A stretch of DNA of 64,000 nucleotides from Psammoneis japonica (GCA_008632985.1 QPGO01000217.1:1-64000); one strand, 5' to 3'; numbered from the stretch's first letter, positions 1 to 24,739 are shown. Made by a program: numbers and translations. The notes: generated from the letters alone by a model not told the origin.

Positions 1-1399
1 CGAATCTTGGATCTCTGATTGAATCGTGGAGGTCCGATGTTGTTGTAAAAACATGCAAATGTGAACATTGTCACAATCATCATGCCAACAAAGACCACAA
101 CGGCCGACAACAACATGGGGCACACTCCTTGCTGCATTGAGAACTTTGTGTTGTCATTGTGAATGATGATTCGGCATGGGTTCAGGGTCATGGTCCAAGC
201 ACTGCAGCAAAAGGCCTTGCATTGGTTGGATCGAAACGCCACCTTGGTTTGTGTTCTTGTGTGCTGCATTTCACGTTTCACTCCGAGCTGTTTCTCTTTG
301 CGGTCGACGCAAGGGCGGCGCCGCACAAAGCAGCGCACCGCACGCAACTGACATGCATCCATCGAGGGACTGGCAGTTGTCTTGGTGCTCTGGTTTGCTC
401 CAGGTTTGCAAATTGGAAAAGGGGCATCTTATGCAGTCACCCCACCAGCATGCATCTTGTCTCAGTGAGAAGCAGATGGGTGGCACCACAGTTTTAAAAC
501 TGATTGCACACAACAGCCAGCCCTCCTGCCTGCTGCTGATGCAAAACAAATCTCCGTGCAGAGGTTAGACTCCTCAACAAAACTCAAGGGGACCCACAAC
601 TTTCTCATTGGTGGAAGGCAAGAGTGCCTACAGACCTGCACATTGGTTTGCTTGTGCGGTCACTTGTTGCTTTAACAATTGGCAAAATTGAGTGTGTGTG
701 AAATCCTCTGTGATGACGCACACACACGTGTGTGTGTGCCTCTGGGTTGTTGTTCAAAGTTGTCTGGATGGCTGCAAGAGGGACGAATGGTTGCAGGCAG
801 GAGACAAAAAACATGGTTTCTTGGAGGCCACGTGTGGAGTGGCCTTGATCTCACAAACCAAAACAGAGCAAGCATGATGAAGGAATTGATCTTTCACAAG
901 TTTGTTGCACCAAGGTTGATGGCCAACTCATCACACAACATGTCAAAAGCACACACAGCCCGTTGGGACAACAGCATTGTTGGGTTTGTTTGCAAGAGGC
1001 GGTTCATTGACAGGGGGGGTGTTCAGGTGCTGCCAAGGTGTGGATGTTGTGACCAGCTTTGATGCTCAAGTGTGACCCTCATGGTGTGCTGTCTTGCCAA
1101 AACGAGTGGCAAAAAGGCCCGGCAGGCTGGTCATTGTGCCGGACCCAGATGTGGTCAAAGAGGTGCTTTTGGCCACTTGGCACAATGTCTTCAACTGTGG
1201 ATGGCAAAAACACAAAAGTCACTGTTTGGTCACAATTGCAACCCTTGTTTTGCATCTTTGACTTGCTGATGGGTGTCTTTGCTTTCACACACATGTGCAG
1301 GCCATGTGAGGTCAGTGCAGGCTGACAAGACATTCATGATGATGTCTTGGTCATTTGGTGGGCAGTGCTGTCCACTTGTCTGGGTCTCATGCTCACTGC

Positions 1400-1674
1400 T
1401 GACAGAAATTGAAGGCAAATGGCAAGAATTCAAACAACAACTCCTCACTGCTGTCTAAATGGCAGATGAGTCTCTGCTCAGAGACCGTCACAGGAGCCAA
1501 AAGACGTGTGAGTCGGTACAATCAGGCTGCTGTCATCATTCTGTGAGCCTTGTGGCTCGAAAGCAAACCACATCGCGCGCGAACGCGCGGAACTGAAGCA
1601 CACAAAACTGTGCGCGGTGAACTGAACAGCACGCAACATTTTGCGCGCACCCAAATCCTGTTCAAATCCTGTCA
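1400..1674 (-). repeat. 3' LTR (275 bp)
   Basis: TGACAG...CTGTCA termini; aligns end to end with 4486-4769. Confidence 0.95.
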
Positions 1675-2375
1675 CTCCCCAGTTTGCTTGAGGGGTCACA
1701 GAAACAGATTCGACTTCGGATTGACTGAAGAACTTTGGAGTCAAAGCACCAAAACATGAGGAGACAAGAAAGGATCAAGATCCTGGAGCAACGTTGCATT
1801 CTCCAAGTGGGTCATCTTGAGATGAGCTGCGTCTCCCCAATTGCAGATGCCATTGTGCTTTTCAAAGCTCAAGGCACACTTGGATCTTGTGGGATTCCAC
1901 ATCCGCACTTGCAATGGAAGGAGCAAAGCTTGGTCTGGTTGACAATGTTGAAGGGCGGGACAACATCACAGGACAATGCAAACAAGTTGAAATCGCCCTC
2001 ACTTCCTGAGCAAAGGTCGTAAAGACTGACAGCCGTCTGTTGGTTCTTGGAACGGTTGCCACACTGGGCTGCTGCTAGAAAAACAGAGCAATGCTCGAGC
2101 AGGGTGGCATGGCGGTTGCACAACTCGGGGAACAGAGCAAGCATGAGTTCAAAGGCACAAGCAGCGGTCTTGTGTTCCACCAATCTGACTGCAAACTCAG
2201 CTGCATCTCCTGAGAGACTGATCCAATTGGACAAACGAGTCTCAAGGTGCAAGCCTTCGGGGATCGGATTGGAGCAAGATGTCTTGTGGTGCAAGACTGC
2301 AGATGTCTGGTTGGGGCAACCAGCCCCGTGCTGCAAGACTTCTGGAATCCAAAAGGACTTGCCAGTCTTGTGACA

Positions 2376-2765
2376 CGAGTCTTCGGGGATCTAATCAGGA
2401 GGCCAAGTCTTGAGGTGCGAGACTTGGGGGATCCAATCAGGAGGCCGAGTCTCATGGCGCAAGACTTGAGGGATCCAACCAGGAGGCCTGGTCTCGAGGT
2501 GCGAGACTCGGGGGATCCAACCAGGAGGCCCAGTCTCGAGGCACGAGACTTGAGGCATCCAATCAGGAGGCCTGGTCTCGGGGTGCGAGACTTGGGGCAT
2601 CCAATCAGGAGGCCCAGTCTTGAGGTGCAAGACTTGGGGCATCCAATCAGGAGGCCCAGTCTCGAGGTACGAGACTTGAGGCATCCGATCAGGAGGCCCA
2701 GTCTCGAGGTGCGGTGCAGGGAGGATCCGAGGCCTGGTCTCAAGGTGCAAGACTTGGAGGATCCA
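2376..2765. repeat. 42-bp tandem array (~9 units) inside the LTR element
   Basis: Unit approximately gagacttggggcatccaatcaggaggcccagtctcgaggtgc; appears as 14-aa repeats in several ORF-track frames. Confidence 0.92.
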
Positions 2766-3530
2766 AAGACAACGAAGCTGCTTGGATGTCCTGAACTCCT
2801 CATCTGATGAACTGGTTGAACTGTTGTGAACAGATTCAATGATGGGAAAAGGAGGCTCCCCATCAGGAGATGCAAGAAGCAAGTTGTCATCTCCATCACT
2901 TCCCAAACGAAGGCTGTGAAGGGTGACAGCGGTCGACACGTGGAGGTTGGCAGCACGTGGTTTGCGGGGTGCAAAGGCTGCAGCTTTGGAAGCCATGGGT
3001 GGAGTGTCCCAACTGGTCTCGAAGTGCGGGCCTGCGCAAGGGTTGCAATCCTGCACTGGGCCGAGGTTGCTTGCAGGCGGGTTGGTCAAGACATGCGGGG
3101 CGCGACTGACACCAGTTCTGGGGGACACCTGAGTGGCGGCACAGTGCAAGGCTGGTGTCAAAATGGCACCGAGTTCACCTGGTTTGGATGGCAAGGGACT
3201 CGGCACAGGTGCGGAGGGTGCTGCGCCAGTGGCTGGAGAGGTCAAGTGGTCCGGACCAAGGCGGCAGTTGCGAAATTCCTCGGGTGTGAGCAACTGGGGT
3301 TCATTGGTCACATCATCACCGTTGCAAACTTTGACAAAGTAGAAGCTGATCAAAGCGGCTAGGAGGTTTCTGTGGGTGCGTGGCAAAGGCACTGCATTGG
3401 CGCCGTCTCTGCAAGCGAGGGTGTCAATTTGGGACAGGGCAGAACAAAGAGGGCTGTCATCGTCTTGATTGAGCACAGTGCCTAGAATGCATTCAAAGCT
3501 TTTGGCTTGTTGCTGTTGCGTGAGAACCAT
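2391..3530 (-). pseudogene. Degenerate CoDi-like gag N-terminal ORF running into the tandem array
   Basis: MVLTQQQQAKSFECILGTVLNQDDDSPLCSALSQ resembles the diatom copia gag start (MV..R....F.HIL..VL....DSPL..AL, recalled from memory); lies between the LTRs in the sense implied by the PPT. Confidence 0.65.
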
Positions 3531-4485
3531 GACGGAGGACGGTGCAGCAGAAACAAAAGACAGGAACCAATCTAGAGCGCGATCTTGGCTCGGAGTTTTG
3601 ACTTGGAACTTGGCTTGAAAAAGACTTGACTTGAGCTAGACTTGACTTGAAATCTTGGACTGTCTTAAAATCAGAAGTCGCCGGGTTGTGCTGTCCCGTT
3701 TGCAGTTGAGTGCCAAACTTCCCATCCGGTCCGTAGAGTTGTGCTGGCACGTCCGAACCCACGGCTGGCGGCGCTTTGGGTTGCTCACAAGCGGAGTGGC
3801 GGGTTGCAAACCCCTGCAGGTGAGCTGACCAGGGGTGGACAAGACCCCCAAACCGTTCTCATTTTACATCGGTTGGATTTCCCGATCAGGCTGGCCAGTT
3901 GATGCAGGCGTTGGGCGCTGTGGACGAAGGAACCAACGCAGAAAAAAAAACACCCTCGCCCCAACGCAGGCTGCAATCACGGCTGCTTGCTCTCACAGTC
4001 ATCCTCATGGACCCAGTGGAACTGCAGAGCACCAGCAGTCTGGGCAGATCAGGCACAATGGACTCGGTGTGCTTGTGGAGTGGTGGCAAAGCCGCAGTCC
4101 AAAGAGTGGGTTCAAGTTCTTGGCCGTGAAGATGTGTGTGTGTGCATGTGTCTTCAGCAACGCAGATCCTTGAATGTGCAGGGTTCTTGACCGTTGACCG
4201 TTGAATGGGTGCATGAAGGGATGAGGATCAAGGATGGACTTGGATGCAACCGATGAATGTGTGTCTCAGCGACAAAAGGCAGGTGGTCAATCCAGATGTC
4301 CAGCGGCAAGGAGACTTGATGGCGACGTTAACTTCCTGCCGATGCCTGGCATTGAATGCGCGCAGACTTGCCGATGTACGTAGAACACACACGGAGGTCC
4401 ACGCAGAATTGAAAAGCGTCATCGGCAAATCAACGACGATGATGGCGGTTGCTCAATGGGTTGACAATGAGCAAGACTGTCAATC

Positions 4486-4769
4486 TGACAGAAATTGAAG
4501 GCAAATGGCAAGAATTCAAACAACAACTCCTCACTGCTGTCTAAATGGCAGATGAGTCTCCGCTCAGAGACCGTTGCAGGAGCCGAAAGACGTGCAAGTC
4601 GGTGCAATCGGGCTAGGGCCCTACTGTCATTATTCTTGTGAGCCTTGTGGCTCGAAAGCAAACTGCATCGCACGCGAACGCGCGGAACTAAAGCACACAA
4701 AACTGTGCGCGGTAAACTGAACAGCGCGCGACATTTTGCGTGCACCTGAATCCTGTTCAAATCCTGTCA
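4486..4769 (-). repeat. 5' LTR (284 bp)
   Basis: TGACAG...CTGTCA termini; aligns with 1400-1674. Confidence 0.95.
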
Positions 4770-6574
4770 ACTGCACTGGATGCTGCATGCTGCCCAGCCC
4801 AAGTGGCAGCAGCAACCAAAAATCAAAGCACAGTGGAAGATTGAGGTGAGGCTCTTCCAGCCAATGAACTGCAAGACAAGATGCCCCCCTGGTGCCTGCC
4901 AATGGAAGTGATGTCAAGAAGTCAAAGGGTGTGGGGCACACCCCTGTGGTGCACAGCCAGAAGCTGCAGCAGCAGCAACAATGCCCAAGCTTTTTGCTGG
5001 TGATGCTGCACTCAACAACAGCACATTGTTGGCAAGGCCATTCTTGCAAGTGCAAAAGTTGTTGTGGAAGCAAGGAAAAGAAAACAGATCAAGGCAGCAC
5101 TTGTCTGTGTGTGTGTGTGTGCAACTTGGCACTTTTTTGTGAAACACCAACAGTGTGGAGATGATGATTTGGCATGGGCTCAGGGTCATGGTCCAAGCTC
5201 TGCAGCAAAAGACCTCGTCAGTTGGATTGAAATGCCATTTTGGTTGCATTGGTTTCACTTTTCACCACTGTGTGAGAGCTGCATTGGCTGTGGGGTGGTT
5301 CTCCACTGTTCTGTTTTTGTTGCTGTCAATGCAAGGGCAGCAGCATCACACAAAGCAGCCATCGTTCTCCACTCTAGAGCAGAGAGCATTGGAACAAAAT
5401 GGGGACTTTGAGTTGTCTTGGTGCTGGTCAACCACTGGCTCGCATCTTGTCTCAGCAAGAAGATGGGTGTGACAGCACTGCAGATCCAAAACTGATTGCA
5501 TGACAGCCCTGATGAAAATCTGGAGGTTTGCCTCACCAGATTCAGGTGAACCCACAACTTTGTCATGTTGGTGAAAGGCAAGAGTGCTTGGGGTCCTGTG
5601 AATTGGGCTGCTTGCATGGTCATTTCTTGCTTCAACAGTTGGCAGAATTGAGTGTGTGTGCTCCTCTGATGTGTGGATTGTTTTTCAAAGCTGGACAAAA
5701 ATTGTTGGACAAACCATGGTCACCTGCAGACACCAAACATGGTTTCTTGGAGGCCAGCACTTGCAGAGAGCAGTCTTGATCTTGCAGACAAAAGCAGAGA
5801 AAGCATCAAGCTGGTGCATCAAGGTTGGCTAATTTGTCACACAACATGTCATGAGCACTGCCAGCTGGGGTGACAACATTGCTGGGTTTGTCTGCAAGAG
5901 GTGGATCATTCTTGGCTGGGGGGTTTCACGTGCCACCAAGGCATGGGTGTCAGCCATGACCAACTTTGATGCTCAAATGTGGCCCTCCTGGTGTGTGGTC
6001 TTGCCAAAAAGAACAATGAAAAGTTGAGGCTGGTCATTGTGCTGGATGCAGTCAAAGAGGTGCTTTTGGCCACTTGGCAATGTCCTCAGCTGTGGGTGGC
6101 AAAAAGACAAAAGGCAGGCTGATGAACCATTTGTGTTGATTTCTTGGTCATTTGGTGGGCAGCATTTTTGTCCACTTGTCTGGCCTCAGGATCCCTGGAC
6201 ACATCATGCTGTCCAGCACAAGCAGCAGCAGCAGCCAAAAATCAAATCGCATGCTGAAAGATTGAGGCAAGGTTCCGCCGCAGCCAATGAACACCAAGAC
6301 AAGATGCCCCCCTCGTGCCCACAAATGGAAGTGAAGACAAAGAATGCAGCACTCTTGCACACACTTGCACACACTGCCCTCCTCAGCCAAGTGCATTGTC
6401 AGCCACTTCATTGCTCTAGAAGGAAAATGCACATCCCACCTCCCCACCAATGATGGTGCTGCCATCAAGATCCAGCAACCACATGTTGGCCAAAACTCTG
6501 TCACTTTTGACATCCTGCTGCTCCACATCATTTCATCCATTTCCTCTCTAGACCCAAGTGAATGTTGAAAGTTT

Positions 6575-7940
6575 AAGGATCTGACATGCCCACATCAACA
6601 AATGGCACAAAAAGACTTGTGCTTTGCAGAACATTGGTCCAAATGGGCCACTGTGACCACTGCAAGCTCTTGCAGTCACTCACAGGCCTTTGGACATGGC
6701 GGGGCGATTTTAGGGAAAAAGATGGCAACCCTGCAGCAGGGCCCCACATTGTGTGACACTGCACATGAGCAATGCAGTGCTTGGGCCATGGGTGCACATG
6801 CTCTTGACTGCTGCACAGAGAGTCTGTGTGGCACGATCACAGGACCCCCCCCAATGCCCCACTGCATCCAAAGCCCTGGTCACTGACATCAACACTGACA
6901 AAATGGCAGGCAAAATGAAAATGCAAGTGGAACAAAAGCACACACAATTGGGAATCACCAGGACACCTGTCACAGCACACTTGCCTGGCCACCTTGCAGA
7001 GGCAGCTCTGAGTCACCCTGCTGAGTTTCATGGTCTCAAAAGTGTTGCCAGCAGTTTGTGGCATCTGCACATCCAAGAGGAGGTGAGGAGTCCGGCAAAA
7101 CAACCCCCCTTCTCTCTGTCTCACCCAGCACAAAGCCCAGACTCACAGCTGCACTGCCAAGATGTGACATCTTCCAAAATGAGGTGTGTGACATCATGTC
7201 TCAGATGGCAAAGACAGTGTGGTTGCATTGCGGGAAGAAAGGGTTGGTGAAGACCAGATGCCACCAGTGTGCATGAACAAGGCAACACACAATGAACACT
7301 TGCAAGGCATGCAAGCTTCATCAAAATGGCCCCAAAACTCAATCAGTCACAGCGTGCTTTATTTTGCTCATGCACAGTGCTGTCAGAAATTGGGGTGGCA
7401 AAAAAAATGACGTGCCATCATTGTGCACTGACCAAGACCCCCCAAAAAGACACTGAGTGCATCACAAATCCATCTTGTTCAAATTGGGTGCACCAGTGGA
7501 TGCAAAGTGGAGAGAAGCACAAGGCTCTCTCAAACGGATGTGCTGTGGTGGTGCAAGTGTGCAAATGCCATCAAAAAGACACCAATGTTGCAGACACAAT
7601 GACCGGCTGCACCAGATGATTGACTTTGCAGGGTGCAACAAAAAGCCACAATGATCTTTGGCAAATGGGAAAAGGATGCCAAACAAGAAAACATGGAAAG
7701 AACTTGCCACAGCAATGTTGTTGACCATTCAGATGTCACCCGGACAGCACAGCAATTGAGTCACAAGTCAACAAGGCACAGAGCTGTTTGTGCTGTGTGT
7801 GGCAACCAAAGCCCCCCCCAGGAAACCAAACCCATGCACCAACCTCTTCACTTGTGGCAACAACAGAAAAAGAACCTGCATGAAAAATGCATTGGCTCCA
7901 TGATGTTTGCCATGTCAAAATGCGTCAAAGTGCAGTGTGC
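6575..7940 (-). mobile_element. Degenerate dispersed repeat, copy of 28239-29450; probable CRE-like non-LTR retrotransposon fragment
   Basis: Colinear shared blocks with 28239-29450: aaggatctgacat, aaatgcaagtg, ggcagctctgagt, cagcacaaagcccagactc, tgcaacaaaaagc...atgatctttggc, ccaggaaaccaaa, gtcaaagtgcag. The family is inferred only from the adjacent motif in the other copy. Confidence 0.55.
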
Positions 7941-7999
7941 CATTTTCCATGCCAAATCAGGAATGTTTGGGTCCAATTGACTTGTTCAATCACTGTGCA

Positions 8000-9112
8000 A
8001 TCCAAGGTCTGATGATTCTCCAACACATCCAGCAACAAGACTTTGCAATGGTCCCAGCTTGTCGTGCTGGCTGAGTGCTCCTCAGCTGTTTCAAGGAAGA
8101 TGAATGCTGGCCTCGTGCTGCTTGTCACAATCCGTTTTGCCAAAACAAGACTTTTGTTTTGGCCAGCTGCCATTTGGCCCCTCTTTCAAATGTCTCCACC
8201 ACCAGTGCCACCAACAAACAGAAGCTTGCCCATTGCACAAATGTTTCTGCAACATGCGAGACAAACATTCTTTTGCCATTGGACAACACAGACACTGGCG
8301 CCCTGTCTGTCCATCTTGCATGTTTACAATCAGGGACTGCAGCACATTGCAAAGCCTCCCATGCAGATGCAGATCCGATGCTGTGTGCTCTTGCAACTCC
8401 AGAATGTCTTTCATCTGTCTCCAGCCCTCATTCTGACCAAACTTGTCCACATGGAGTGCAAGAACATGAGCTCAGAGTTTTTGCATGCTGCAGCCCTTTG
8501 GATGATTTGGCTCAAGCTGTTTTGCCAACTCCATCATTTTGACAGCATGTGGCAGATGCATCCCAAGGTCCCTGCATTTCTGGTGACATCAAAGTCCACA
8601 TGTTGCCAGCTGCCGGCATGAGTTTTTGTTCTCAAGCACATGTTTCAAAGCTGGAGGTGCAGCTGATGAATTGAAAACACCCATTTTTCAGTCAAGTCAA
8701 GAACCACAACTTTGTCACACAACTCACCAGGGAAGCAAATCTGAGTTGCTTTTGTCATTGGTCTTGTTTCATCCAGATTGCACTCCAAGTTGAGACCACA
8801 AATGGCCTCACTGTCAAGATTGGAAACCTTGTTGGCCATGCTGAGGGCCCAGTTCTTGACCTCAGTTTTGGTTGAGAACACAACAAACTTGTCTTTTGCC
8901 AAAGCGGCCCAAAAAAGCCCATCTTGAGACTTGCACTGCCATGGCTTTATGTTCTTGTGCAGTTCTTGAAACACATTGGGCCACAAACTGTGGTCTCCAC
9001 CACCATTGCCTTCAGCCCTTTTCAGCTCAGCAGCCCTGCTCTTGGTTTGTGCAGTTTGGCAGAGTGCAAAATGTGGCCTGAGCTCATCATTTGATTTTGT
9101 GTGGGAAAACAA
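8000..9112 (-). pseudogene. Degenerate transposon-associated ORF remnant with a possible DEDD 3'-5' exonuclease ExoI-like motif
   Basis: ICGLNLECNLDETRPMTKATQICFP resembles VGLDxEW...xxxQL; KVLLLDVLE downstream. Heavily mutated; motif similarity only. Confidence 0.3.
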
Positions 9113-12100
9113 TTAAAGTTGACCTTGCCCTCATTTGACAGGGAATCACACATTGAGAGGAACTTTTTTCTTGCTTGCTTTGATGCTGGCACCATTTTGG
9201 CAAACTCAAATGAATGGTTGCTGCTCTCTGAGTTGTCAGGGTTCAAATGGAAGCTTTCCTGAAAATGTGACTCACAAATGTTCACAACTTGGCAAGGGAA
9301 ATTGTAAAGCCACAACAGCGTCAGTGCAGCGCAGCATGTTTTTTAAAATGTCAAGCTGCAACAAGAGATGCACCTGCAGAAACACCTTTTCAGGAGACAT
9401 GGACGGTTTCAACAGCACACCATTGCACTCATGCCAGCAGACTGAAACAAAAAAAGCTGCAGGACAAAATCACCATCTGACGCAAGAGCTTTTTGGCCTG
9501 CCACCTTGTCAGAAAGCATGTCATCCCCTTCCTCCTGGCCTCATGGTGCCATCTCATTTCTCGCCATTTCTGCAGCTGCCCTGAGATTTTCCAAGGCCTG
9601 AATTTGCTTTTCCTCTTTGCTTTTTTGCTTGCCAATCAATGTTTGCTCCAAAGCCCTGCACCTTTCCCTTGCTCTGGCCACTTGCTGCTCCACTTTGACT
9701 GCTTTCTGATGCTTGATTTCTTGTCTGGCATGTGCTTCCACTGCCATTGCCACCAGCAAATTATTTTGCTTTCATGCCATCTCTTCTTCAAGCATCATGC
9801 TCAGCCCCTGGTGGGGTTCCTTCTTGTCTCCTTTGATGTGAGCCACTCTTCTGTCAGAGCCTTTTCTGCTGCCACCGCTGCCAGTTCTGGTGCCTGTGGT
9901 GATGGGTGCTGTCATGGTGTGTTCATGCCAACATTGCAACACCCAGGTTGCTTTGGCAGCATCCTTTGCATTTGGCCATGTCACACTGCAACCAAGCCTC
10001 AACAACAAAATTTAAAATGGGATTTGCAATGCATGTGAAGCAAGGCACAGGCTTGTTGCTCCTGAGTGGTGGGGCACAAGATCAGATGGCATCTCTTGCT
10101 TTGACCACTGCACAACACAATGTTTGTTGAGGGGATGATCTTTGTGGGTTTCTTCATCAAAGGCTTGAGGATCAAAAGTGAAGCATTCTGTGGAGGGTCA
10201 TCTGGTTGTGCATGAATCCATGCACCAGCATGTCAAAATGTCTGTCATTGTGGCCAGTTGGTTTTGTCTTTGATTGTCAATTGCCTGATGCTGGCATTGC
10301 TCTTGACTGGCATGATGACGACCAATCTTGTGATCCTGCATGTTGACTTGAAAGACGACTTTTCCAAAACAATCTTGTCACCATGTGTTGCTCTCACCAC
10401 ATGGCTTGCATCATTGATTTCTGCTTCATGTGCATCTCCACCTCCCTCTGTTTGCAACATGAACAATGGTGTGCCTCCTTTGCTCCAGTGTCCAGCGGGA
10501 AATGATTGTCCCATGTGTGGCAAACATTTCCTTCCAACTTGTCTTCAACATCACCTCAGAACTCATCTGAGATGCAAACTTGCCTTTTCTCAACACATCT
10601 GTGTTTCAGGCAATGAATCAGCAGGCATTCACAGCAAAGTGGCATCATCAGAGGAGCCCAAAGATCCTCCCATTGAAATGGCTGCAACTGGGAACAGTTT
10701 GTCTCACTCAAATGTTGCACCTGCTCCACAAGTTCACTTGCAACACAACCCTTGGCCATTGAAATCCAATCATGCTGTGGCACTGGTGCAACAGTCATGT
10801 TTTCCCCTTGAGACACCACCATTTGGCCAGGCACCAACAATGTTCCAGAGTGTGCGTTCCCAGACAACAATGGATCGGTGGTTTCTGAAACATTTGGTGA
10901 CAGCAGGTCTCTTCTTGTTTCTGACATGTTTGCCACTGATGTCAACTCAGGTTCTTTTGTTGTGCTGGATTGAATTGAGCCCCATTTTGCTGATGATGAT
11001 CTTGTTGTCTGTCTAATCTTGACATTCCTTTTGAGTTGCTGTTGTCTCAGGTCCTCTCCTCTGGCAAACAGTTTCAGGTTGACAGGAGTTTGGTCGATGA
11101 GAGAAACAGAGGGAGTGATGGCAGCATTTCACCACAACAGATGCATGGCAAAACTGATGTGCTGTTGTCAGGTGCAGCTTTCTCCACTTGCTCAGCTTGG
11201 GCAACCACCATGTTGATGCAGTCCACAGGACACGGTGGCAACAGGCACAGCTCTCAACCGGCTGGCGCAGCAGTCACTGCTCAGGGAGCAACAACACCAG
11301 CCATCCTCTTCATCTGTGTCATCGGATCAAACTGGAAGCAAAAACTGTGGCCATGCCACTGCTGAATCAAGCTTGACAAGCATGAGCAGTTCCACCTCTG
11401 CACAGCTGGGAACTCAGAAAAAGAAACACAGAAGCCATGGCAGTCATCTTGGAGTGCAAGTTTTTGATGGTGCAATCTGAATCACAGCTTTTTGAATCCA
11501 TGCTTTGCATCTGGAATGGTGACAAAAAATTGTGGATCTCTCAGCCCTTCCTGTTTCTGGTTGTCAAAAGAGAAGGATCCCAACCCGGCTCATGAGATCC
11601 CACTGCAGCCTTGGTTGCACCATGCAGGCAGAAGGTGGAGTGGACCCAACTGATTGCAGGGTCAACAGGAAGGCCACTTTTGTCATTTTGTCATTGCAAA
11701 TGATGTGAAGTGAGCTGCCATCACAATTTTCTGGGACCGTTCTTGTTCTTGTGTTTGCCACAGCAGGTGAAATTGATTGGGGATGAGCAAAACATGCGGG
11801 GGGGGGGCAACAACAAAACACGCACAAAAACAACACACAGGAAAACTTGCATGACAGTTGTCACTGATGTGCAAATGGCAAGTGCAACTGCAACAGGAGA
11901 CATCAAAGAAAATGCTTCTAGTGTGGAGAGATGACAGATGGCCATTTTCAATGAATCTCATGGTCTTTTGACTGGGTTGGATGGGCAAAAACAAAAGATC
12001 GTCATCATTTCTGTCTGTCTGCAGTTCATCTGTTGGAATGATGCCGGCAGATGCAACTTAGACAGATGCTCAAGACCCATCACACTTGTGGTGGAAGCCA

Positions 12101-12932: not shown

Positions 12933-13389
12933 CACTTTCTCGTTCATCCTTTGGTCGACCTGGATCGGGAGGCTGGGTGGTGGGGACAGGTGGTCAGGAG
13001 TGGAGAGTGCTTCACCAGTGCGCCATGACGCCTCTCCAAATCCCAAGCTGGACAGCAGGGCCAGAGGGTGGGAGAGGTGGGAGCGATTAAAACCATCAAG
13101 TTGTTGCTTTGCTCTTCGGAAGAATGAGAGGTGCAATGGGGAAAACAATTGTCCCGAGGTCAGAGGGTCATTTTCAACGGTTTTTCTGTGGGGTGACGAT
13201 GACCAACGGTCACAGGCCCCTCTCGTCCGTTGGACTTTTCAAGGACAGCGGCTGCCACCACTTTTCTCATTCATCCTTCGGTCAACCCGGATCAGGAGGC
13301 CAGGCAGTGGGGACAGGTGGTTGGGAGTGGAGAGTGCTTTGCCAGTGCACCATGATGCCTCTCCAAATCCCAAGCTGGACGCCAGGGCC
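12933..13389 (-). repeat. Ngaro 3' repeat block B2-A2-B1 (+ strand order)
   Basis: B2 12933-13062 and B1 13259-13389 share ttcatcctt...ggggacaggtgg...ggagtggagagtgctt...cctctccaaatcccaagctggac; A2 lies between them. Confidence 0.93.
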
Positions 13390-13480
13390 GCCAGCGCCTC
13401 CCAATGAAAACAACGTGGAGTCAGAACGGGCCACGAGGCTTGGGTGGGTGGGTGGGCCCGGCTGGCGGGCTGGTGGTGAA

Positions 13481-15367: not shown

Positions 15368-15399
15368 GTGGAGTCAAAATGGTGCAAGAAATCAGAGTT

Positions 15400-17388
15400 A
15401 GAGAGGCGCTGCATGCGAGAAGCATCGTCTGCTGCACTGTTGAGGGGGCCGGGTGCACAGTCGTGGAGGCCAGTGTGATGGTGACAGCGTTGGTGGTGGG
15501 CTTGGCCCCGGAGGAGATGGGAGGCCAGTTTGATGGTCGTGCTGGCTCCTTTGCGTTGCTGAAACATGGTGCCGAGGTTGTCGGCATGGGAAAGGAAAGT
15601 TCATTCCCTGATGTCGCAGCAATCCGCCATGGCACAGGACTGAATGAAGCTGCCTGTGAGCTCAAGGTCAGTGTTGGTGATGGGACCCTTGGGGTTTTCG
15701 CAGGTGCCAAGGCTGGCGGTGATGTCCTTGGGAAAGGGCATCTGCCACACAATGGGGTCCAGGCATGTGTGAGGGTGGATGCGTCCGGTGCCAGTGCGGA
15801 GTTGAGTGGCTCGTGGTGTGGCTGTGGGAGTTGGCAGTGGGACGCCCCCGGCACCATGGCCGGCTGCATCGTGACAACCCCCAACAGTGGGCTCCAACAG
15901 GACTGGCTCTTGAATGCGGGTGGGGTGTGCATCGAGCGTCGTACACAGGTCTCGAAAGTCATCGAGAATGGCGTGCACATTCTCCGCAAGCCGGAGGCGT
16001 GCGTCGGGTGTGGCGTGGCAGAGATTCTCCTGCAGAACAGAGAAGAGTCCTCGAGCTCTGGGCAAGGCAATGGCGAGCAAACGCAATTCGCCCAAGAGCT
16101 TCTGGCAATCAAGGACAGTGGTGCGGCGGCGGCTCCGGGGAAAGTCCTGGTGCAGTGTGTGGCAAAGGCGTTCTCGGCGGCGTGGTGTCAGCCGCAAGGT
16201 CATCGACTGAGTGTCGATCAACCAACCGAGGACCTCCTTCTGTGTGGTCCACGTTGCATTGCCCTTGCGGAGCTTTTTGATGGACATGGGCTCCTTGCGA
16301 GTGGGCGAGTTGTGGAAATCGGTGGGGCGGAAGATGTCGTCGATGGCGTGCATGACAACTCGGTGTACATTGCCGCGGGCAGTCTTGTCGCCCTGGGCTG
16401 CACCGATGAAGTCGTCAACACAAATGTCGATGCATGCTAGATGCCAACATTTAGAATGGTTTGGGTGTGGGTCGGATTGGGCTGGAATGGGGATGGAGAG
16501 CGCCGGGTCTGGTGGTGGCGTCGGTTGATGTGTCGGCGGATGGCTCTCAGCGAGTCGCTCCAATTGGTGTGGCGGTGCTGTGACATTGTGGAGCAAGGCC
16601 TGATTGGATGAGTCAGCCACAGTCTTGGTGCCTGCACTGAAGATTGGTGGCGAATTAGCCCAGCCCATGGGCAGGCATGTCGGCATTGCCACAAGGCGTG
16701 GCTCACCTGGCAATTGTGGGAAGGAGACACCCAACAGAGGTGCACGATCTTCAGACAGGAAAACTCGGCAGAAACCATCCGACAGGTCTATCTTCATGAG
16801 ATGGACTCACCCCTTTTTTTGGTTGGCGAGGAGAATGTGCCAAAGTGAACGGTCCAATGCTCGGCCGAATTGCATGGCCCCCATGGGGGCACTGGGCTGC
16901 ATGGCTTGATTGACCCCAAAGCAGGAGCAATCAACAATGGGACGGGGCTGTCTGGCATGTTGGGGTGCCACGCCTGTTGGACTGAGGTGCAGACCGGGAA
17001 CGGTCTTCACCTCCTCATGCGGCAACACAACCCAAAAACCTTTTGCAATGTAGCCGTGCATGTCTTCGCGCAAAAAGTCGATGTGCTCCCAAGCGGACTT
17101 GTGTGGTCCCCTGGCGACACTTGCTTCTAGCTCTTCAGCCGTCCACCGGGCATTGGCGACCATGATGGGCGCTCCCCGTGTCTGACCCCAGTCCCCTCTC
17201 TTCCTGCGATGGCGAAGGAGGTAACTGAGACCTTTTTGACGAAGTGCAAGTGCATCCTTAAGAATTTGCTTGCCCAGTTTGTCCAGCTCAGAGTTGGCAA
17301 TGGTTTGCCCATGGAGGGTGGGACGACCATGGCTCTGCTGAGCACGTGGATTCTCCACCTGTGGGGGTGGCGGGCCTGGAGCCGTCAC
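15400..17388 (-). pseudogene. Reverse transcriptase/RNase H of the Ngaro element
   Basis: KGFWVVLP, LHLSPTGVAPQHARQPRPIVDCS, AMQFGRALDR, KIDLSDGFCRV, LPMGWANSPP, CIDICVDDFIG (YVDD), KEVLGWLIDT, CHDAAGHGAGGV, ITNTDLELTG; internal stops and frameshifts. Confidence 0.92.
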
Positions 17389-17409
17389 CGGCTCCAGATG
17401 AAAAGGCTC

Positions 17410-19000
17410 TCAGCAGTCAGCCCCCGAACCGATGCTGCTGCCAAATTCTTGTTCAGTTTTCCAATGCTCCGTGGCCCATTTGAGGAGCGAGGACTGCTCT
17501 GCGTTGGTGTGGCGTCCATGGTGGTCATTGCGGGATCCACAATTGGTGTTGCATTGCCTCTTGATGTGGCAGGGAAGGCAACGGGCAGTGCCATTTGAGT
17601 CAACGGGCAAGGCAATGTTGTTGCGAGCGCAGCGCTGCTTGACATCACGCAAGCGGACGTTTGGGCGATCACGAACGGAAGAAAAACGGTCATCGCAGTT
17701 TTCATTGTGAACAATGGAATTGTCGCCCGGAGTCTGAGCTTGCCCAGCAGGTGAGGGTGCAGGTGCTTGGGCTGATCCCAGATGCTGAAGCGGTCCCGTC
17801 GAGCTGTGTGTCGGTGGGCCTTGAGGTCGAACGGCAATTGGCAGCGGACGTTGCCAATTGCCCTTGGCCGCCTCGTAAATGACATTCTTGGGCGTGAACA
17901 GAACGGGATTGTGCATGGACTCTTGATCTTTAAACCAATGATGGATTTCGATCTGAACACAGCGCTGGAAATCTGCGGGCAGCGCAGGGTGACACGTCAT
18001 CTGCAGCGCAAGATCATTGGTGCAAACGTCCAAGGAGTGGCGCAGGTCCATGAGACAACAGACGACCGGGGGTGGGCAGCGCCTGAGGCCGCGGACAGGA
18101 CCACCCAGAGTCCATCAAGTGAGTGTTGGACAGCCTGCACAGTGGCAGCAACCTTCGCATCGTCCGGTGCTTCAAGAACCACAGTGTCGGACAAAGATGG
18201 CGTGCCCATGCCACCATGAATCTGGTGGCACAGAGCCACACGGTGTGCCATCTGTTCCACCTGTTGAGGAGCAGTGAGGCCGAAAATGAAAGGGTTGACA
18301 CCTTGAGCGAGGTCATCTTTGTTGTGTCCGGCCAATGAGAGTTGGGCGAGCTTGGTGACCATGCTCACTGAGATTGGAATCTCAAAACAGACGCTTTGTG
18401 CCTGACGTTGCTCATCCACAGTGTTCTGCACTGTGGCGATCCGTCCCGTCTTGGGCGCAGCAGCCAAACGTTGCCACAAGGGCAGCAGCTGGTTCTCTTG
18501 ATGCACCTGGCACAATCACATGAGCTTTGTAACCCCGTGTTCTCCACAGAACTGCACCGGTGTCTTTCTGCGATTGGCTGCCTGCTGGCGGGCCTGGGCA
18601 TCCAAACGCTGTTGCTGTTGTTCCGCGGTGAGATCGTCAACAGCGCGAATGACCGGCTGAAATTGCGGTCCTGGCATGGCCGGTGCCCCAAATCCAGGGA
18701 GATCGTGTTGTGTGCATTGGTCGAAAAAACGAATCAGGTGCTCGTTGGGTGGTTGGGGGAGAGTGGGGTCACTCGGTGCAAACCGCCGACTCCTTGCCAT
18801 CAACTTGCATCGTGACACATGTGACACGAAGAAAATCCAGAAGTGCCCGGCAATCGGCCACTCTGTTTGCCACGTCAAGCGCTCCACACACGCGTGTGTG
18901 CACCTCCTTGGGGGTCAACGGTTCTGGTGGGAGTGACTTGACCAAATCAAATGGCACGAACATGGTCCCTCTAGTCCGCACCTCCTCCGAGTCCACGTCG
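17410..19000 (-). pseudogene. Ngaro gag-like ORF, 3' part
   Basis: Fragmented ORFs directly upstream of RT, ending in a Cys/His knuckle (RCLPCHIKRQCNTNCGSRNDH); EEVRTRGTMFVPFDLV motif. Confidence 0.7.
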
Positions 19001-20026
19001 TGTGCTGCTGCAGCAGGATGCAACCCATGTGTGGAGAGGTCGTTGGATGACAAGGAAGAGTCAAGTGCCCGATGAGCTGTTGAATGCAAATTTGCATTCC
19101 CAGAGTTGCTCCTCCTCCCGACCACTTTGACGCAAGCATTGGGTGACAGGTTGGGTCCCGATGCACCTTGTGACGCCAAGTTTGACATTTCGCAAGCAAC
19201 AGAGAGACATTGTGGATTACGATTTAAGTGACCGAGCATGCGCTGGAAGGAGCAATGGCAACAGGGACAATTGATTGCGTCTTCACCCTTGTTTTCGGAC
19301 TGCGGCAGTTCCATTTTGGTGTTTTTGTGGAAAGAAACGATCACGCATCGGCGAGAACAATTCTGCGAATGGACGCGGCTGAGGTTTGGTCGTGTGGACG
19401 GTGTGTGTTGTCAGGGTGGGCAGGATGCAAGACACAAAATTGGCGCAAAAATGGCGATCATTGATCATTTTGCATCAATGAATGCTTTTGCAGTTGCCTG
19501 ACAAAAGGATGCGTTGGGACAATTGAACACTTTCAGGTTGTGCAACAAATGAGAATGCAAAAACTTGCCAACGGAAAGGGAAGAGCAAGTTAGAACACAG
19601 TCTTCGGAACATTTTGTGATCACCGCTCACTGTCAATTCGTTGACTTGCGCACGCAGTGAAAAGGCTCGGGTTGTCCCATGTCCGTCAGTTCCACCATTG
19701 GGGCGGCGTCAATGCATCAAAAACAACACCCGTCATGCCACAGCCGTGCAAGCAACCTTCAGTTACACCATGGCTTCCATTGTCCAAAACGACACGTTGC
19801 TGGCATGCTGGCCTGATGACTGCTGGAGGAAATTGGCTGAGGTGGAGAGCAAGGGACAAGAAGCAAAAGAGGAAAAGATGGAGGCGGACTGCCACGCAGC
19901 TAAAAAAGAGCCAGGTCGCTGGTTGGGCACTGGGAGGAAGGAACCATCCAAGAACCCCTGCTTGCAAAGAGACTGCATGGACATGTGTCATTTAATCTGC
20001 TCGCACAGCAAAGTCACACGCGGTGA

Positions 20027-20825
20027 TGCTCGGTCTACAGGTGAACCGAGCCGGATCGGATCGCCGGATCGACTCCTTCATAACCCATTAAAATGTTAGT
20101 CCATCGAGTCAAAAAGTCGGTCCGTGGCCTTCGTGGGACTGATCCGCCATCTCGGATCGGATGTCGGATCCAATTTTGAAGATTCCGTGCCGTCATCACG
20201 ACAATGGCACAACATCACACGATTATGACACAGAACGGCATAAGATTCAGCCATAAGGGCAAGGGACATTCTGAGCATTATAGTCAAAGTCTTCCCATGC
20301 TCGAAATGACGATGAGAAAGGTCGCATGGCAATAGAATAGCTTGTCAAACCGATAATGCCGTATAGATTTGTTGGAGAAACATTGAATAAGCAAAATAAC
20401 AAGTATTTATTATTTAATTCGAAATTTCAATACGAAAACATTTGCATTAGTTTCCTAATTACAAAAGTGATAGCTTTTTCTTCCTTAGCGTTGCTGCGAA
20501 CACTGAGTGACAACGATTCTCAATGATGCGGTCTCATATGTATGTATAGCAGTAATAACAGTATGGTTCTGTCGTCATATCGTCACGTTATGACAAGATG
20601 TGAAGCATCATGGCCACACTTCTTGTTGTTCGCTGTTGTCAGCGCTTTGTTGTTCTTGGGAGTTTGGAATCTTGAAACTTATGTCGTTTTGCGACTCATC
20701 AAAATGTCGAATCCGATCCGCGATCCGATCCGCGATCCGATCCGGTTCCACCTGTCGACTAACGGAATTCTGACGCGATCCGATCCGTCGATCCGATCCG
20801 GCGCGGTTCACCTGTAGACCGAGCC
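20027..20825. mobile_element. 799-bp young MITE (PIF/Harbinger-like)
   Basis: ~45-bp TIR (GCTCGGTCTACAGGTGAACCG.GCCGGATCGGATCG.CGGATCG); TGA TSD at 20024-20026 and 20826-20828; removal rejoins ORF ...KVTRGD|LGAEPVDVEEMWE; normal TpA/CpG content. Confidence 0.93.
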
Positions 20826-22208
20826 TGACTTGGGCGCAGAGCCCGTGGATGTCGAAGAAATGTGGGAGATTCATTTGATGATCATGGAAAGAGATGAACA
20901 GACCATCAAGGAGAAATGGAAGGAACTGTCAGAAACCAAATACAAAATCATGAGCCGGGTCTGTGAGAACATGCATGAATGGAGCAGGGAAGTGAGGGAA
21001 TGCATGCACGCTGCACAGGCCATGTTTTCCATTCACAACAAGGACGAGCGCTCAAGTTGGAGATCATCGAGCAAGCGAGGAATGCTCACAAAACACGCCA
21101 GCATTGGAACTTGCTGGCAATGCACCCGGAGAGGCAGGGAGAACAGCACGCGGCAAACAGTTGGTTGAACAAACCAAGCGATGAGCTGATTGATGAGTTT
21201 GCAGCTGGGTCAAGGGAGGGCAAGCTTCGTCTGGCGATTGACAAGCAAGATGTTGATTCATTTAGCAGGGAATCAACCATCAGCTTGCCCACATGTGGAA
21301 TGGACAACAGCGGGAATTGCAGACCACTCGCATTGGACAACGGTTTGGGAGATGTGTGCAAACTGGTTGTGGACCGAAAGGGCGTCGTGTTTGATGCAAG
21401 GAAGCTGGCGAATTTGTTCGAGCAACAAGCAGAGCGAGACACACCTTGCAGGTTGTGGCGGTGTGACGAATTGGAGTTCTTTGAATTGACACCAAGGAAG
21501 GTCAACGGTTGGATCTTGGAAATGATCGAGAAAAGGGACTTGGGTCGGGGGTCCTGTCCTTTTCATTGGGACGATGAAAAGGACAGGAAACTGCGGAGAC
21601 AATGTTTAAAAATGAAACAGGAAACGACTCGTCGCAATTACGTCGAGCGTTTTGTCGGGTGTGTCAGTGAGGCAACCTGCATGTTTGATCACATGACTGA
21701 TTGCTCATGTGAGGGGAGGTGCAGCAATTTTGTCATTGTCCATTTAGAGGAGGATGCAATGGAAGAATTGGATCAGAGTTCGTTTTCGGCGCGAACTTTC
21801 CATGGGAGGTGAAGAGTGCATGGAGCATGGATGCGAACTTCTGACCGACAGTGATTGCTGTTCATGCACGATTCTGTGTGTTTAAGAGTTTCAAATGCAA
21901 TGATCGAGTTGCACATCTGAGTTGTCATCAACATTTAATTGTGCAAATCAAATTGAAACATTGGTCTCTTAAACTGAAACAAACACAACCAAGTGTGTTG
22001 TTTTCAAAGTCAAATGACAAAAATTGCCAATTGTGATGATTTGGGAAAGATTTGACAGTTGACAATGCACAAGGATGGAGAGGTGGCATCACCATCAAGT
22101 GTTGGGAACAGATTTGAAATTTTGCAAAGACTGTCTTCCTCGGCAGAACTGCTGCACTTGCATGACCGCGGACGGGAGGAACTGACAGCGACACAATGAG
22201 TCGAGGCG

Positions 22209-23403
22209 ATGGGGAGGAGGAAGAAAGCGTCCAAGAGGGATGCTGCAGGGGCGGAGGGAGCGCCCCACAGCCCGAGGCTTGTGGCGGCATTGCAGCAGTC
22301 GGGGGCTGCGGCGGATCACAAGTCACTAAAGAGAGAGGTGGAAGAGGTGGCACGGAGAGAGCTGTTCCCAAAGGCGAAATTCCTCGTGAAGGCGGACATG
22401 GCGAGTGATGGCAAGGTGTCACGGCTGGTGCGCAAAAACACAGCAGATGGGAACTTCAGCAAACGAGAATGGGCAGGATCATGGGAGGACTGGGCTAAAA
22501 AAAGCATGCTCAATGCGATCAACGCAAAAAGAAACACCGTGTGTCAGACGACAATGAGGAGTGCGATGAGTGGTGAGTGAAGAGGAGTGGAGCATTTCCG
22601 AAGTGAAAATAGAAAGTGGTGCTGCCAATGAATGTCTTGTTTTTCTACAGTCGTTGTGACAGAAAATCAAGCAGAGGACATCCGAGACAACAAAAGGCAA
22701 GAAGCAAGGAAGCAGAGATCCAAAAAGAAGCGGAAACAAGACACAGCCAACATTGAAGAAGAGTTCATTGCGACTTGGGAGGATGGGACAGCGGACACAA
22801 TTGTGTTTGAGAAGCGAAAGAACAGAGAGGCGTGCGCCTGGTTCTACGACAACATCCTAAAATTCACGAAGAGCACTGCGATGTGGAGGAGGATGGCAGA
22901 GTCCGGAAGCACAAAGGCCACAGAACTGGCTGCTGCAAGCGACGAGGCACTGGCCCTTTTGATGATGGAAAACCACTGGAAGATTTGGGAGCACAAGAAG
23001 ATGCAGGGGTTGGATGAGGAAGGGAGCGAAGAGGAAAAACTGGCTCCATTGCACACGGACCCGTCGCGACAGCGTGACTCTTGGAAGGATGAGGGAACAA
23101 AGCAATTCAACCAATTGCCTTAAGGAGGTAAAGGAAGACAGGGCAACAGAGCAGGGTGTGCATTTCGACACGTGGCACACAGACGAAAAGAAAAAGGAGT
23201 GCGAAGAAAAGGGAAAAAAGGCAAGAACCACTCAAGAGCCAGCAAAAACGGAGACGAGAATGCAGGCAACATTGGAACTTTCTAGTGACAATGAGGAGGA
23301 CGATGAAGCAAAGGAGAAAACAAGTGGCAAAGAAGATGAGAAGGAAGATGAAGCCAGCCAGGAAGACAGTGACGGAAGCAAAGGAAATGAGACTGCAGTG
23401 TGA
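22209..23403 (+). pseudogene. Transposon-associated spliced ORF of unknown function (SDEAxALLxxENxW motif), frameshifted near 23120
   Basis: Exon 22209-22572, GT-AG intron 22573-22650, exon from 22651; acidic C-terminal tail in a shifted frame; Tyr almost absent. Confidence 0.55.
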
Positions 23404-23805
23404 GCAGATTGGAAATGTGGGACAACCAGGACGGCAGCATCAACTCAGCATTGATTGACACCAGAGGCTAAAAAGCCACAGCGATGAGTCTTGGTTGATT
23501 GAAAAAAGTTGACTGGGTTCATTGTGTTTGTTCCTTGTGATTGCAAAACAACCACACAATGTGAAAATTGACAATCATGCTGACAATCAGCAGTTGTGGT
23601 GAACGGAGACACATGCCAAATGGGAAAAAAGGGGGGTGTTTGCATGGTTGAGGTTTTTTCTCATGGACAAAAAGAGTTCTCTGCAGTTAAAAAAATTGAC
23701 TGTCATGGATTAAATTTTTTCACCAGCTGCACAACTGATGAGGTTTGAAACTGTGAAAATTTCATCTGTCAAAGAGATGAAAATCACAATGAAAAGGTGA
23801 CGCCA

Positions 23806-24569
23806 GATCACCATGTTGCGCCCTCTGATGCAGCGTGGGTTGCCAGTGCTGCATCAGCAGGAACCCAAGTCCCTGGTGCGGCCAACGCAAAATGTGCATC
23901 CGGGAAAGTTGCAATGGTGTGCTGTCCTCAGTGCAGATCGCCAATGATCGCGAACTTCTGACCATCCCATGGCTGTGGTGGCCCTGCGACCGTGGTTGGA
24001 TGCTGCACAATGCGATGGCAGATTTGGACGCGGCCCGGATCCACCGCGTTTGCGTTGGGGTCGCGACAATGGAGTGCCATGGCCATGGGCATGTTGCGCG
24101 TCGAGGCAGCCGCAACTCGTTCCGCAAGCACGTTCGCCCCGTGCCTTGCATTGCCATTTGCAACTGCCGCAAAATCCAACATCAGATCGGCGCATTCACC
24201 GCCATGCAGATCATTGTTGGTCATGGAGCAGCATGCTTGGCATGTGTCGATGACCGGCATCGGCAAGGGCACCATCGGTGGCTGTTGGGGCGGTGTGGCG
24301 ACTGGCTGCACCGGTGGTGGTGGTGCCCCAGCTCCTCCTGGAAACGGATGAACTGGCGGGGCTGGTTGAGCTGCCCCCCTGGTTGTGGTGCGACGTGTGC
24401 GTGAGGTGCCGCGGCTTGTGCCGGTTGACCTCCCACACTCGGATTTGCCACTGGCGGCGGTCCTTGTCCTGCTCCTGGAGGTGGTGGCACGTTTGCCACA
24501 ATGGGTGCAGTGTCCCTGCTGGCGAGTGCAACAAACAGTGTGGCTGAAGGCATCCTCAGCCTCGAGATG
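23806..24569 (-). pseudogene. Ngaro gag-like ORF, 5' part
   Basis: Pro/Ala-rich start, then DLHGGECADLMLDF...QPWDGQKFAIIGDL, directly downstream of repeat A1. Confidence 0.65.
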
Positions 24570-24739
24570 GCGACCAAAACTGTCGAGTTGTTGCTTTGCT
24601 CTTCGGAAGAATGAGAGGTGCAACGGGGAAAACAATCGTCCCGAGGTCAGAGGGTCATTTTCAACGGCTTTTCTGTGGGGTAACGATGACCAACGGCATC
24701 ACAGGCCCCTCTCGTCCGTTGGACTTTTCGAGGACAGTG
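24570..24739 (-). repeat. Ngaro split direct repeat A1 (matches A2, 13083-13250)
   Basis: ttgttgctttgctcttcggaagaatgagaggtgcaa...tctcgtccgttggacttttc is present in both copies. Confidence 0.93.

Follow-up and report, generated by a model that had tools for sequence, protein, structure and literature searches.

Near-complete loss of TpA to TpG and CpA in a retroelement and repeats of the diatom Psammoneis japonica

A 64,000-nucleotide stretch of the genome of the diatom Psammoneis japonica (GCA_008632985.1, QPGO01000217.1:1–64000; hereafter the window, with positions counted from its first letter) carries, between genes of ordinary composition, blocks of retroelement and repeat DNA in which the dinucleotide TpA has been almost completely replaced by TpG and CpA. 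Its gene content agrees with a diatom nuclear genome: the named relatives closest to two conserved genes are all diatoms, at 62% identity or less (Ditylum, Coscinodiscus and Attheya in one search; Seminavis, Nitzschia, Cylindrotheca, Cyclostephanos, Extubocellulus and Minutocellus in another), and its ORFs (open reading frames) are long and poor in introns. Here we describe these blocks, establish the direction and specificity of the change, and weigh a host process acting on selfish DNA against the other explanations that could be offered for it.

TpA-poor blocks and their contents

The window holds 1,371 TA dinucleotides by direct count, and their spread is very uneven. A scan by kilobase gave TpA observed/expected (O/E) ratios of 0.01–0.17 in most of 1–24 kb, 28–30 kb, 49–53 kb and 63–64 kb and of 0.37–0.84 in genic kilobases, with TG and CA at an O/E of 1.3–2.3 in the block kilobases. 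Two-state segmentation into low and normal TpA called six low segments (1–13923, 14959–19992, 20816–24680, 27768–30364, 48429–52987 and 63062–64000), which together make up 30,917 bp with only 112 TA (TpA O/E 0.03–0.09; TG and CA at 1.5–2.0 times expectation per block). The remaining 33,083 bp of the window hold 1,259 TA, with an O/E of 0.49–0.56 in three genic segments. A preliminary description of this DNA had reported blocks nearly devoid of TpA and rich in TG and CA beside genes with normal TpA, and these counts bear out both statements. Most of its block coordinates also stand, except that its first block (1–24.7 kb) is broken by two islands, 13924–14958 and 19993–20815, with TpA O/E of 0.30 and 0.61, and that its patch at 57.2–58.1 kb holds only in part, mainly as a TA-free run at 57536–57891.

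Forty-five runs of at least 250 bp lack TA altogether, the longest of them extending over 1,154 bp; because TA normally recurs about every 26 bp in the window, such lengths lie far beyond chance. Nearly all of these runs (43/45) fall in low-TpA segments, the others being in a leucine-rich-repeat (LRR) gene and in a gene pseudo-copy (57536–57891). Passage from low to normal TpA takes no more than tens of bases (52987|52988 is one such border), and the borders coincide with the ends of elements, one of which (24737) sits 6 bp ahead of the ORF of a gene. GC content is raised in the low-TpA blocks. Trinucleotide counts on both strands nearly balance, the losses of 69.3 TA and 51.4 CG per kb approximating a gain of 129.0 TG plus CA. 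CpG is unevenly depleted, with an O/E of 0.53 at 1–4400, 0.19 at 4401–12900 and 0.66–0.83 across the retroelement at 13–24.7 kb; the CpG poverty first ascribed to the blocks in general is thus pronounced at 4.4–12.9 kb and much milder in the retroelement.

This retroelement occupies 13083–24737 on the minus strand and measures about 6 kb without its insertions. It was recognized by tblastn with the ORFs of 80 related metagenome loci (L001–L080), many of which lie on contigs of about 6 kb, and it belongs with them to a large family with three ORFs that is common in metagenome sequence. Direct terminal repeats of about 168 bp, 93% identical to each other, span 13083–13248 and 24570–24737. Between them, all on the minus strand and all placed by tblastn, lie ORF1 (24341–23934 and 18999–17449), ORF2 (17505–15028), which encodes a reverse transcriptase (RT), and ORF3 (15382–14987 and 14280–13496). 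The element has 144 protein homologues, with 38–62% identity among the 120 listed. A retroelement ORF gave a weak match to RVT_1 in Pfam (E = 0.003), and the ORF1, ORF2 and ORF3 proteins of the complete relatives L001 and L035 gave no Pfam match at E ≤ 0.001; the family looks uncharacterized, and the element may be LTR-like or DIRS-like.

Two insertions interrupt the coding sequence. ORF3 is broken by 706 bp (14281–14986) that appear as a gap between contiguous protein matches and have a TpA O/E of 0.29 and a CpG O/E of 0.95, and ORF1 is broken by a nested insertion of 4.9 kb (19000–23933), across which the protein match jumps from 18999 to 23934. The nested insertion is itself TpA-erased (O/E 0.10) on either side of an inner element that resembles a miniature inverted-repeat transposable element (MITE) and lies at 20028–20824. 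This MITE-like element is bounded by 44-bp terminal inverted repeats (20028–20071 and 20781–20824, 95% identical) and has escaped hypermutation (TpA O/E 0.63, CpG O/E 1.46).

The erased block at 1–13923 (TpA O/E 0.06, 53 TA in 13.9 kb) contains unidentified repeats, among which self-BLAST delineates internal families at 163–1674, 4485–6340 and 6565–7838; the last of these is 70–73% identical to the block at 27768–30364 (TpA O/E 0.04). The block at 48429–52987 (O/E 0.03, 9 TA in 4.6 kb) includes a dispersed repeat of very high copy number at 48.7–49.3 kb (word depth 72,313 against about 60 nearby, with 2,422 matching contigs), in which no tandem array was found, and a further block at 63062–64000 (O/E 0.04, 2 TA in 939 bp) continues past the end of the window. 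Other stretches of the blocks recur within the window at 69–90% identity by self-BLAST. Derivation from transposable elements, first proposed for all of the blocks, holds for the retroelement, the repeat at 48.7–49.3 kb and the recurring stretches, and is only likely for the rest. A Pfam scan of the blocks with their edges, taken as 243 stop-free ORF entries, returned five matches, namely the gene pseudo-copy (DUF6691) and four that were below threshold and at the level expected by chance; no credible viral match was found among the 243 entries, the three matches to viral families all falling below threshold. Long open frames are expected in the blocks because TA-free DNA can form stop codons only as TGA.

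Tandem repeats occur both inside and outside the blocks. An array of 42-bp units with a 126-bp higher-order period lies at 2333–2713, in a TpA-free block, and its copies differ mostly by CG-type changes and by the CA/TG doublets defined below. The TA-free run in the LRR gene (47542–47801) is not a product of hypermutation, as its units differ mostly by transversions; at 47615–48009 this gene carries 84-bp tandem repeats that encode LRR_6 units.

Direction and specificity of the loss

The related loci served as outgroups in a codon test. ORFs of at least 200 amino acids from the 80 loci (226 in all) were aligned to the window by tblastn, and matches at 13000–19500 were used; those at about 23.9–24.3 kb and 32.5 kb, together with less conserved positions, were left out. 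Positions covered by at least 10 loci, and at which a single residue made up 60% or more, were kept, 721 in number. None of the 15 conserved tyrosines is retained in the window copy: five codons are now TGY, five are CAY (Y, pyrimidine) and five are something else. All other residues taken together are retained at 519 of 706 positions, or 58–92% per residue (Fisher P = 3.5e-9 against Tyr). In a separate count over the 60 protein homologues that head the list of 120, Tyr had become TGY or CAY at 8 of 8 positions, and the RT catalytic motif YVDD reads CVDD in the window copy. Further replacements, Leu→Pro as CCA, Ile→Thr as ACA and Val/Ile→Ala as GCA, match a change from NTA to NCA (N, any base). 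Outside TpA, A-to-G change is rare: Lys became Arg or Glu at 2 of 26 positions, Asn changed at 1 of 12 and Asp became Gly at 1 of 46, and codons for Lys, Asn, Asp, Thr and Ile are retained at 65–92%, about like those of other residues. Every one of the 80 related loci has a TpA O/E of 0.41–0.87, against 0.09 for the window copy. The relatives are therefore not TpA-free in their turn, and the family is not intrinsically TpA-poor; the shortage in the window copy is mutational in origin.

A duplicated host gene tells the same story. The 3′ end of a sulphur-transport-like gene (gene copy at 58434–58790) has a pseudo-copy at 57387–57739 on the minus strand (DUF6691, E = 3e-9) that is 82% identical to it at the DNA level and 79% at the protein level, where the changes include Y→C, I→M and L→P. 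The coding part of the pseudo-copy lies within the TA-free run 57536–57891, and only part of the copy is TA-free. Where the gene has its 12 TA, the pseudo-copy has CA at five, TG at three, TA at one and other dinucleotides at three. Changes of A>G or T>C affect 9 of 24 TpA bases compared with 10 of 126 other A/T bases (P = 5e-4), an excess specific to TpA, and the gene copy keeps a normal TA density. The direction TA→TG or CA, as originally described, is thus borne out by outgroups, namely the Tyr codons, the TpA of the relatives and the gene pseudo-copy. The comparisons between internal copies from which it had been derived cannot polarize the change, as both copies are mutated.

The two strands are affected alike. 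Every block contains TG and CA in roughly equal numbers and in random order (runs test, |z| < 1.5), with no clustering into strand patches (runs of TG or of CA) in any block by the same test, and along the coding strand of the retroelement TGY and CAY stand at 5:5. Trinucleotide gains of N-TG and N-CA are nearly equal for each N; they favour neither strand as the one edited at a given flank and fit two half-site models alike. Sequence context has a strong effect on which TA remain, as judged from the 112 survivors relative to normal DNA (chi-square P = 1.7e-24). Survival by NTAN context is lowest for ATAT (0; 0 against 97), ATAC/GTAT (0.005) and ATAG/CTAT (0.016), intermediate for ATAA/TTAT (0.04), GTAC (0.05), CTAC/GTAG (0.07) and GTAA/TTAC (0.15), and highest for CTAG (0.26), CTAA/TTAG (0.31) and TTAA (0.41). 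TpA is accordingly lost far more readily from RTAY than from YTAR sites (R, purine), and by hand arithmetic on the ratios the pattern is roughly multiplicative over two half-sites. Near-equal strand use and this palindrome-like preference together point to recognition of duplex DNA.

Change in place, rate and targets

Repeat copies that lost TpA separately can differ in the product that they retain. When one ancestral pyrimidine–purine (YR) step has been resolved differently in two copies, a CA/TG doublet results. Four old repeat pairs show 14, 17, 14 and 6 such doublets (6, 14 and 17 in the pairs that involve 27768–30364), and the controls, three alignments between intragenic tandem repeats, have 0–1, with transversions dominant. 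The youngest pair, 4485–4769 and 1399–1674 (285 bp), shows 16 differing sites that together cover 20 bases: seven are CG-type, five are TA-type and four are CA/TG doublets, and neither transversions nor further transitions occur. A two-lineage estimate from this pair gives per-lineage losses of 0.71 for TA and 0.20 for CG, with 0 changes at about 223 other sites, and predicts 3.1 TA-derived doublets, compared with the 4 observed. TpA has thus been lost faster than CpG decays through methylation and at a pace far above background.

Because doublets between copies are ambiguous on their own, change in place is argued from two other comparisons. The first is that between the terminal repeats of the retroelement, which differ at 10 bases, all of them transitions (four CG-type, two TA-type, one doublet and two other). 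Terminal repeats of long terminal repeat elements are identical at integration, and if this applies here, the differences arose in the chromosome. The second concerns a single locus: a public DNA run (X1), assembled on its own, gives contigs that span the block at 49–53 kb with about 1% difference and are also without TA, at a word depth on this block of about 57–63. Among the 40 of 391 variant rows listed, 25 positions lie in the block and form 19 events: five CA/TG doublets, five CpG-type events (one of them double), one TA/CA difference, six other transitions and two transversions, so that TA is restored by just one of these 19 listed events. X1 shows that the TA-free block is reproducible and that it varies at the same locus, not that the two sequences are fully independent. 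TpA loss therefore continued to act on these elements after they had inserted.

Methyl-CpG decay (CpG→TpG or CpA) is present in the same blocks, where CpG O/E is 0.19–0.8, and the proposal of a second mutational process that works beside it, changing A:T to G:C at TpA in selfish or silent DNA, has held up. A coupling of this process to CpG methylation, also suggested at the outset, has not. The retroelement has lost every conserved Tyr codon, whereas only about a quarter of CGN Arg codons have decayed (12 Arg positions are now His, Gln, Trp or Cys and 41 are still CGN), which indicates that TpA loss does not ride on CpG loss.

Targeting is selective even over short distances. The MITE-like element at 20028–20824 either inserted later than the mutated element around it or is exempt from the process, and the 706-bp insertion, with its middling TpA, was possibly caught midway through erasure. 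An open DDE_3 transposase ORF of the Tc1/mariner type (30650–31870, plus strand; Pfam DDE_3, E = 1.3e-13) adjoins a mutated block yet has normal TpA (O/E 0.57 at 30365–32000). From these three cases it appears that the process strikes particular elements or periods and not a whole chromatin neighbourhood, and the first two indicate that it is not simply domain-wide and continuous. It neither needs nor affects both copies of a duplication. As only one of the two gene-fragment copies was mutated and the MITE-like insertion was left untouched, pairing of duplicates as in repeat-induced point mutation (RIP) is not indicated, and the earlier label of a repeat-targeted 'reverse RIP' does not fit. 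Just upstream of the DDE_3 ORF, at 30436–30580, lie short tandem arrays with units of 10–21 bp.

A host process and its alternatives

TpA-directed hypermutation has a precedent in the chlorarachniophyte Bigelowiella natans, described in a 2026 preprint (Mettrop et al., bioRxiv 10.64898/2026.01.13.699255) that overtakes the preliminary statement that no established description was known. In mutation-accumulation lines of this alga, two integrated viral regions took 231 of the 302 mutations; of these 231, all but one (230) were A>G or T>C, and every GC-biased change lay at TpA. Mutations arose there at about 6e-7 per site per generation, some 1,000 times background, and in some lines only. The B. 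natans genome contains 124 clusters of TpA-poor, CpA- and TpG-rich windows, RT and DDE domains are over-represented among its TpA-poor coding sequences, and an ADAT2-like deaminase is proposed for the activity, as a candidate only (10.64898/2026.01.13.699255). A term search of the main text finds no mention of diatoms, stramenopiles or CpG. This preprint is the only precedent that we found in the literature, and we found no report of TpA-erasing mutation in diatoms or other stramenopiles. An RID-like DNMT4 has been described in diatoms (Hoguin et al. 2023, PMC9998398), with hypermutation not noted in the portion of that paper considered here.

Set against the main text of the preprint, the diatom blocks share its central features. 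In both algae the changes are A:T→G:C transitions (in the diatom, Tyr TAY→TGY/CAY at 10 of 15 codons and TA→TG/CA at 8 of 12 sites of the pseudo-copy), are restricted to TpA, give both TpG and CpA on either strand, and are confined to discrete integrated regions at a rate far above background, leaving TpA-poor, CpA- and TpG-rich sequence as their long-term trace. The differences lie in setting and extent. B. natans belongs to the Rhizaria and the diatom to the Stramenopiles; the B. natans regions are integrated viral genomes, of nucleocytoplasmic large DNA virus (NCLDV) and virophage type, whereas the diatom targets identified are a retroelement and repeats, with no viral genes found; and the diatom blocks are near saturation, at a TpA O/E of 0.03–0.09 compared with 0.45 for the NCLDV insert. 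CpG decay accompanies TpA loss in the diatom, unlike in the account given by the main text, and a hierarchy of RTAY far above YTAR is seen in the diatom and is absent from the preprint's abstract, Results and Discussion. The B. natans mutations were seen live; the diatom process is read from sequence alone, the same-locus doublets between X1 and the window being an indirect hint of new changes in integrated DNA. The diatom blocks are a further case of hypermutation of the B. natans type, in another lineage, with transposon targets, near saturation and independent of CpG.

Better-known systems resemble the diatom process in part. Fungal RIP changes C:G to T:A, mainly at CpA, and so creates TpA. 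It too kills repeated or selfish chromosomal DNA by transitions with sharp borders and near saturation; unlike RIP, the diatom process destroys TpA, raises GC content, runs from TA to TG or CA, and does not follow a rule of duplicates, since one of two gene-fragment copies was hit and the inner MITE-like element was spared. Hyperediting by ADAR and mutation by APOBEC3 are similar in that deamination-type transitions inactivate retroelements, and ADAR and ADAT enzymes prefer an A that follows U (10.64898/2026.01.13.699255). They differ in that ADAR and APOBEC3 act on RNA or single-stranded cDNA and so mark one strand, whereas the diatom process affects both strands in place, is strictly confined to TpA and hits DNA other than retroelements, including a host gene fragment. 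Methyl-CpG decay likewise turns a symmetric YR dinucleotide into TG or CA on either strand, but removes only CG, and at the slower of the two per-lineage rates (0.20 against 0.71).

We consider it probable that a host process of the same kind as that of B. natans turns TpA into TpG or CpA in place. Such a process would act on chromosomal double-stranded DNA of the diatom, would be aimed at certain selfish or foreign-looking elements while sparing their gene neighbours, and would repeat until TpA is nearly exhausted. Elements would be inactivated as Tyr codons become Cys or His codons and the RT motif YVDD becomes CVDD, and the process would run beside ordinary methyl-CpG decay but independently of it. 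We propose its chemistry tentatively, as enzymatic deamination of adenine at 5′-TA-3′ in DNA to hypoxanthine, which is read as G, with chromatin or small RNA perhaps as its guide. In tRNA, ADAT and TadA enzymes act on A34, directly after the conserved U33, and would on that account have a natural preference for T before A. Speculative, and rather unlikely in its entirety, is a fuller version, in which a diatom defence enzyme recognizes duplex 5′-RTAY-3′ in marked selfish DNA, edits the adenine on either strand to a base that reads as G independently of cytosine methylation, is homologous to the B. natans system and forms part of an ancient DNA-editing immunity of the SAR (Stramenopiles–Alveolates–Rhizaria) group.

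Several points weigh against an in-place host process. The polarized samples are small (15 Tyr codons and the 12 TA of the gene pair), 5 of the 15 lost Tyr codons are neither TGY nor CAY, and the 20 transversions in the gene pair show that the pseudo-copy, besides being edited, is old. Within the mutated retroelement lie a MITE-like element free of hypermutation and a 706-bp insertion that is half mutated. The doublets between copies could also come from separate editing before insertion, X1 may derive from the assembly's own culture (its platform is not on record), and the share of doublets among X1 variants comes from 40 of 391 rows rather than a full count. The evidence consists of sequence, with no enzyme, base modification or de novo event observed here, and an adenine deaminase that occurs in nature and is specific for TpA in double-stranded DNA is not known to us.

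If a TpA-specific A:T→G:C defence exists in both diatoms and a chlorarachniophyte, it is probably widespread in marine protists and would affect the transposon load, GC content and birth of genes of algae that dominate their ecosystems. TpA-free, TG- and CA-rich runs offer a simple genome-wide marker with which to map its targets, date its activity and screen other genomes. The field of candidate enzymes is narrowed by the preference for RTAY, the symmetry of the strands and the lack of any tie to CpG decay, and an enzyme that naturally edits adenine in double-stranded DNA, if that is what it proves to be, would represent new biochemistry useful for base editing. Some diatoms can be transformed; should P. 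japonica be transformable like them, the question is directly testable.

Among the alternatives, error-prone repair is improbable. Recurrent excision and patch resynthesis of silent, methylated DNA by a polymerase-eta-like enzyme would insert G opposite T at WA (W, A or T) and so turn A to G chiefly at TA, and CpG decay in the same blocks would supply the T:G mismatches to start it. Polymerase eta has a WA→WG bias in antibody hypermutation. The specificity for TA alone argues against such a source, as do the absence of any other transition from the youngest pair and the retention of AA-type codons (Lys and Asn) at an average level or better. TpA loss is, moreover, complete where CpG is mostly intact, and a palindrome-like RTAY preference is not a known polymerase context.

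Thymine modification fares no better and is likewise improbable. Here a TET/JBP-type enzyme would convert the T of TpA to 5-hydroxymethyluracil (5hmU) or a derivative, and mispairing or mis-repair would complete a change of T to C. Dinoflagellate 5hmU prefers TpA, and a symmetric dinucleotide target with equal strand use fits any enzyme that modifies duplex DNA. The window sequence itself carries nothing that bears on this reading; 5hmU pairs with A, and we know of no high-yield change of T to C arising from it.

Editing of transposition intermediates, either as RNA by an ADAR- or ADAT-like enzyme or as cDNA before integration in the manner of APOBEC3, would leave the chromosome untouched, and we regard it as quite improbable. 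It accounts for block borders at element ends, and separate editing of each new copy would also yield CA/TG doublets. Editing of one strand, however, predicts one product, and TGY and CAY occur at 5:5 with TG and CA mixed; a duplicated host-gene fragment is affected as well; and the terminal repeats of one insertion, like X1 and the window at one locus, differ at TA-derived sites. The neighbour preference of ADAR is weak and not exclusive to TpA. In B. natans, according to the preprint's main text, the change occurs in integrated single-copy DNA.

Very unlikely, and largely refuted, is the idea that the absence of TpA benefits the elements (through escape from a UpA-cutting RNase or from TA-targeted insertion) or reflects a TpA-poor source: that a very high-copy family is TpA-free does show that such sequence can be abundant, but all 80 relatives have normal TpA, conserved tyrosines were destroyed even in the RT catalytic motif, and copies made independent choices between TG and CA. 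A sequencing or assembly artefact, such as a modified base misread as G, is the least credible of all, for although single-base indels between the window and both X1 and a further data set, X2, indicate an imperfect assembly or another genotype, the separately assembled X1 contigs, at a word depth of about 50–60, reproduce the TA-free blocks and the mutated copies carry indels and transversions typical of true divergence.

The same two data sets gave some minor observations on the genes of the window. Relative to it, X1 and X2 alike contain inserted single bases, for example at 56045, 56525 and 56614; that at 56045 may join the ORFs 55539–56069 and 56048–56632, and the window may contain small indel errors or represent a different haplotype. 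The depth of X2 on the block at 48.7–53 kb is almost nil, a figure not used as evidence. X2 also skips 83 bases at 46194–46278, with CT..AC ends that correspond to GT..AG on the minus strand, which points to an intron in the ankyrin/kinase gene and suggests that X2 is derived from RNA, although it is not so recorded.

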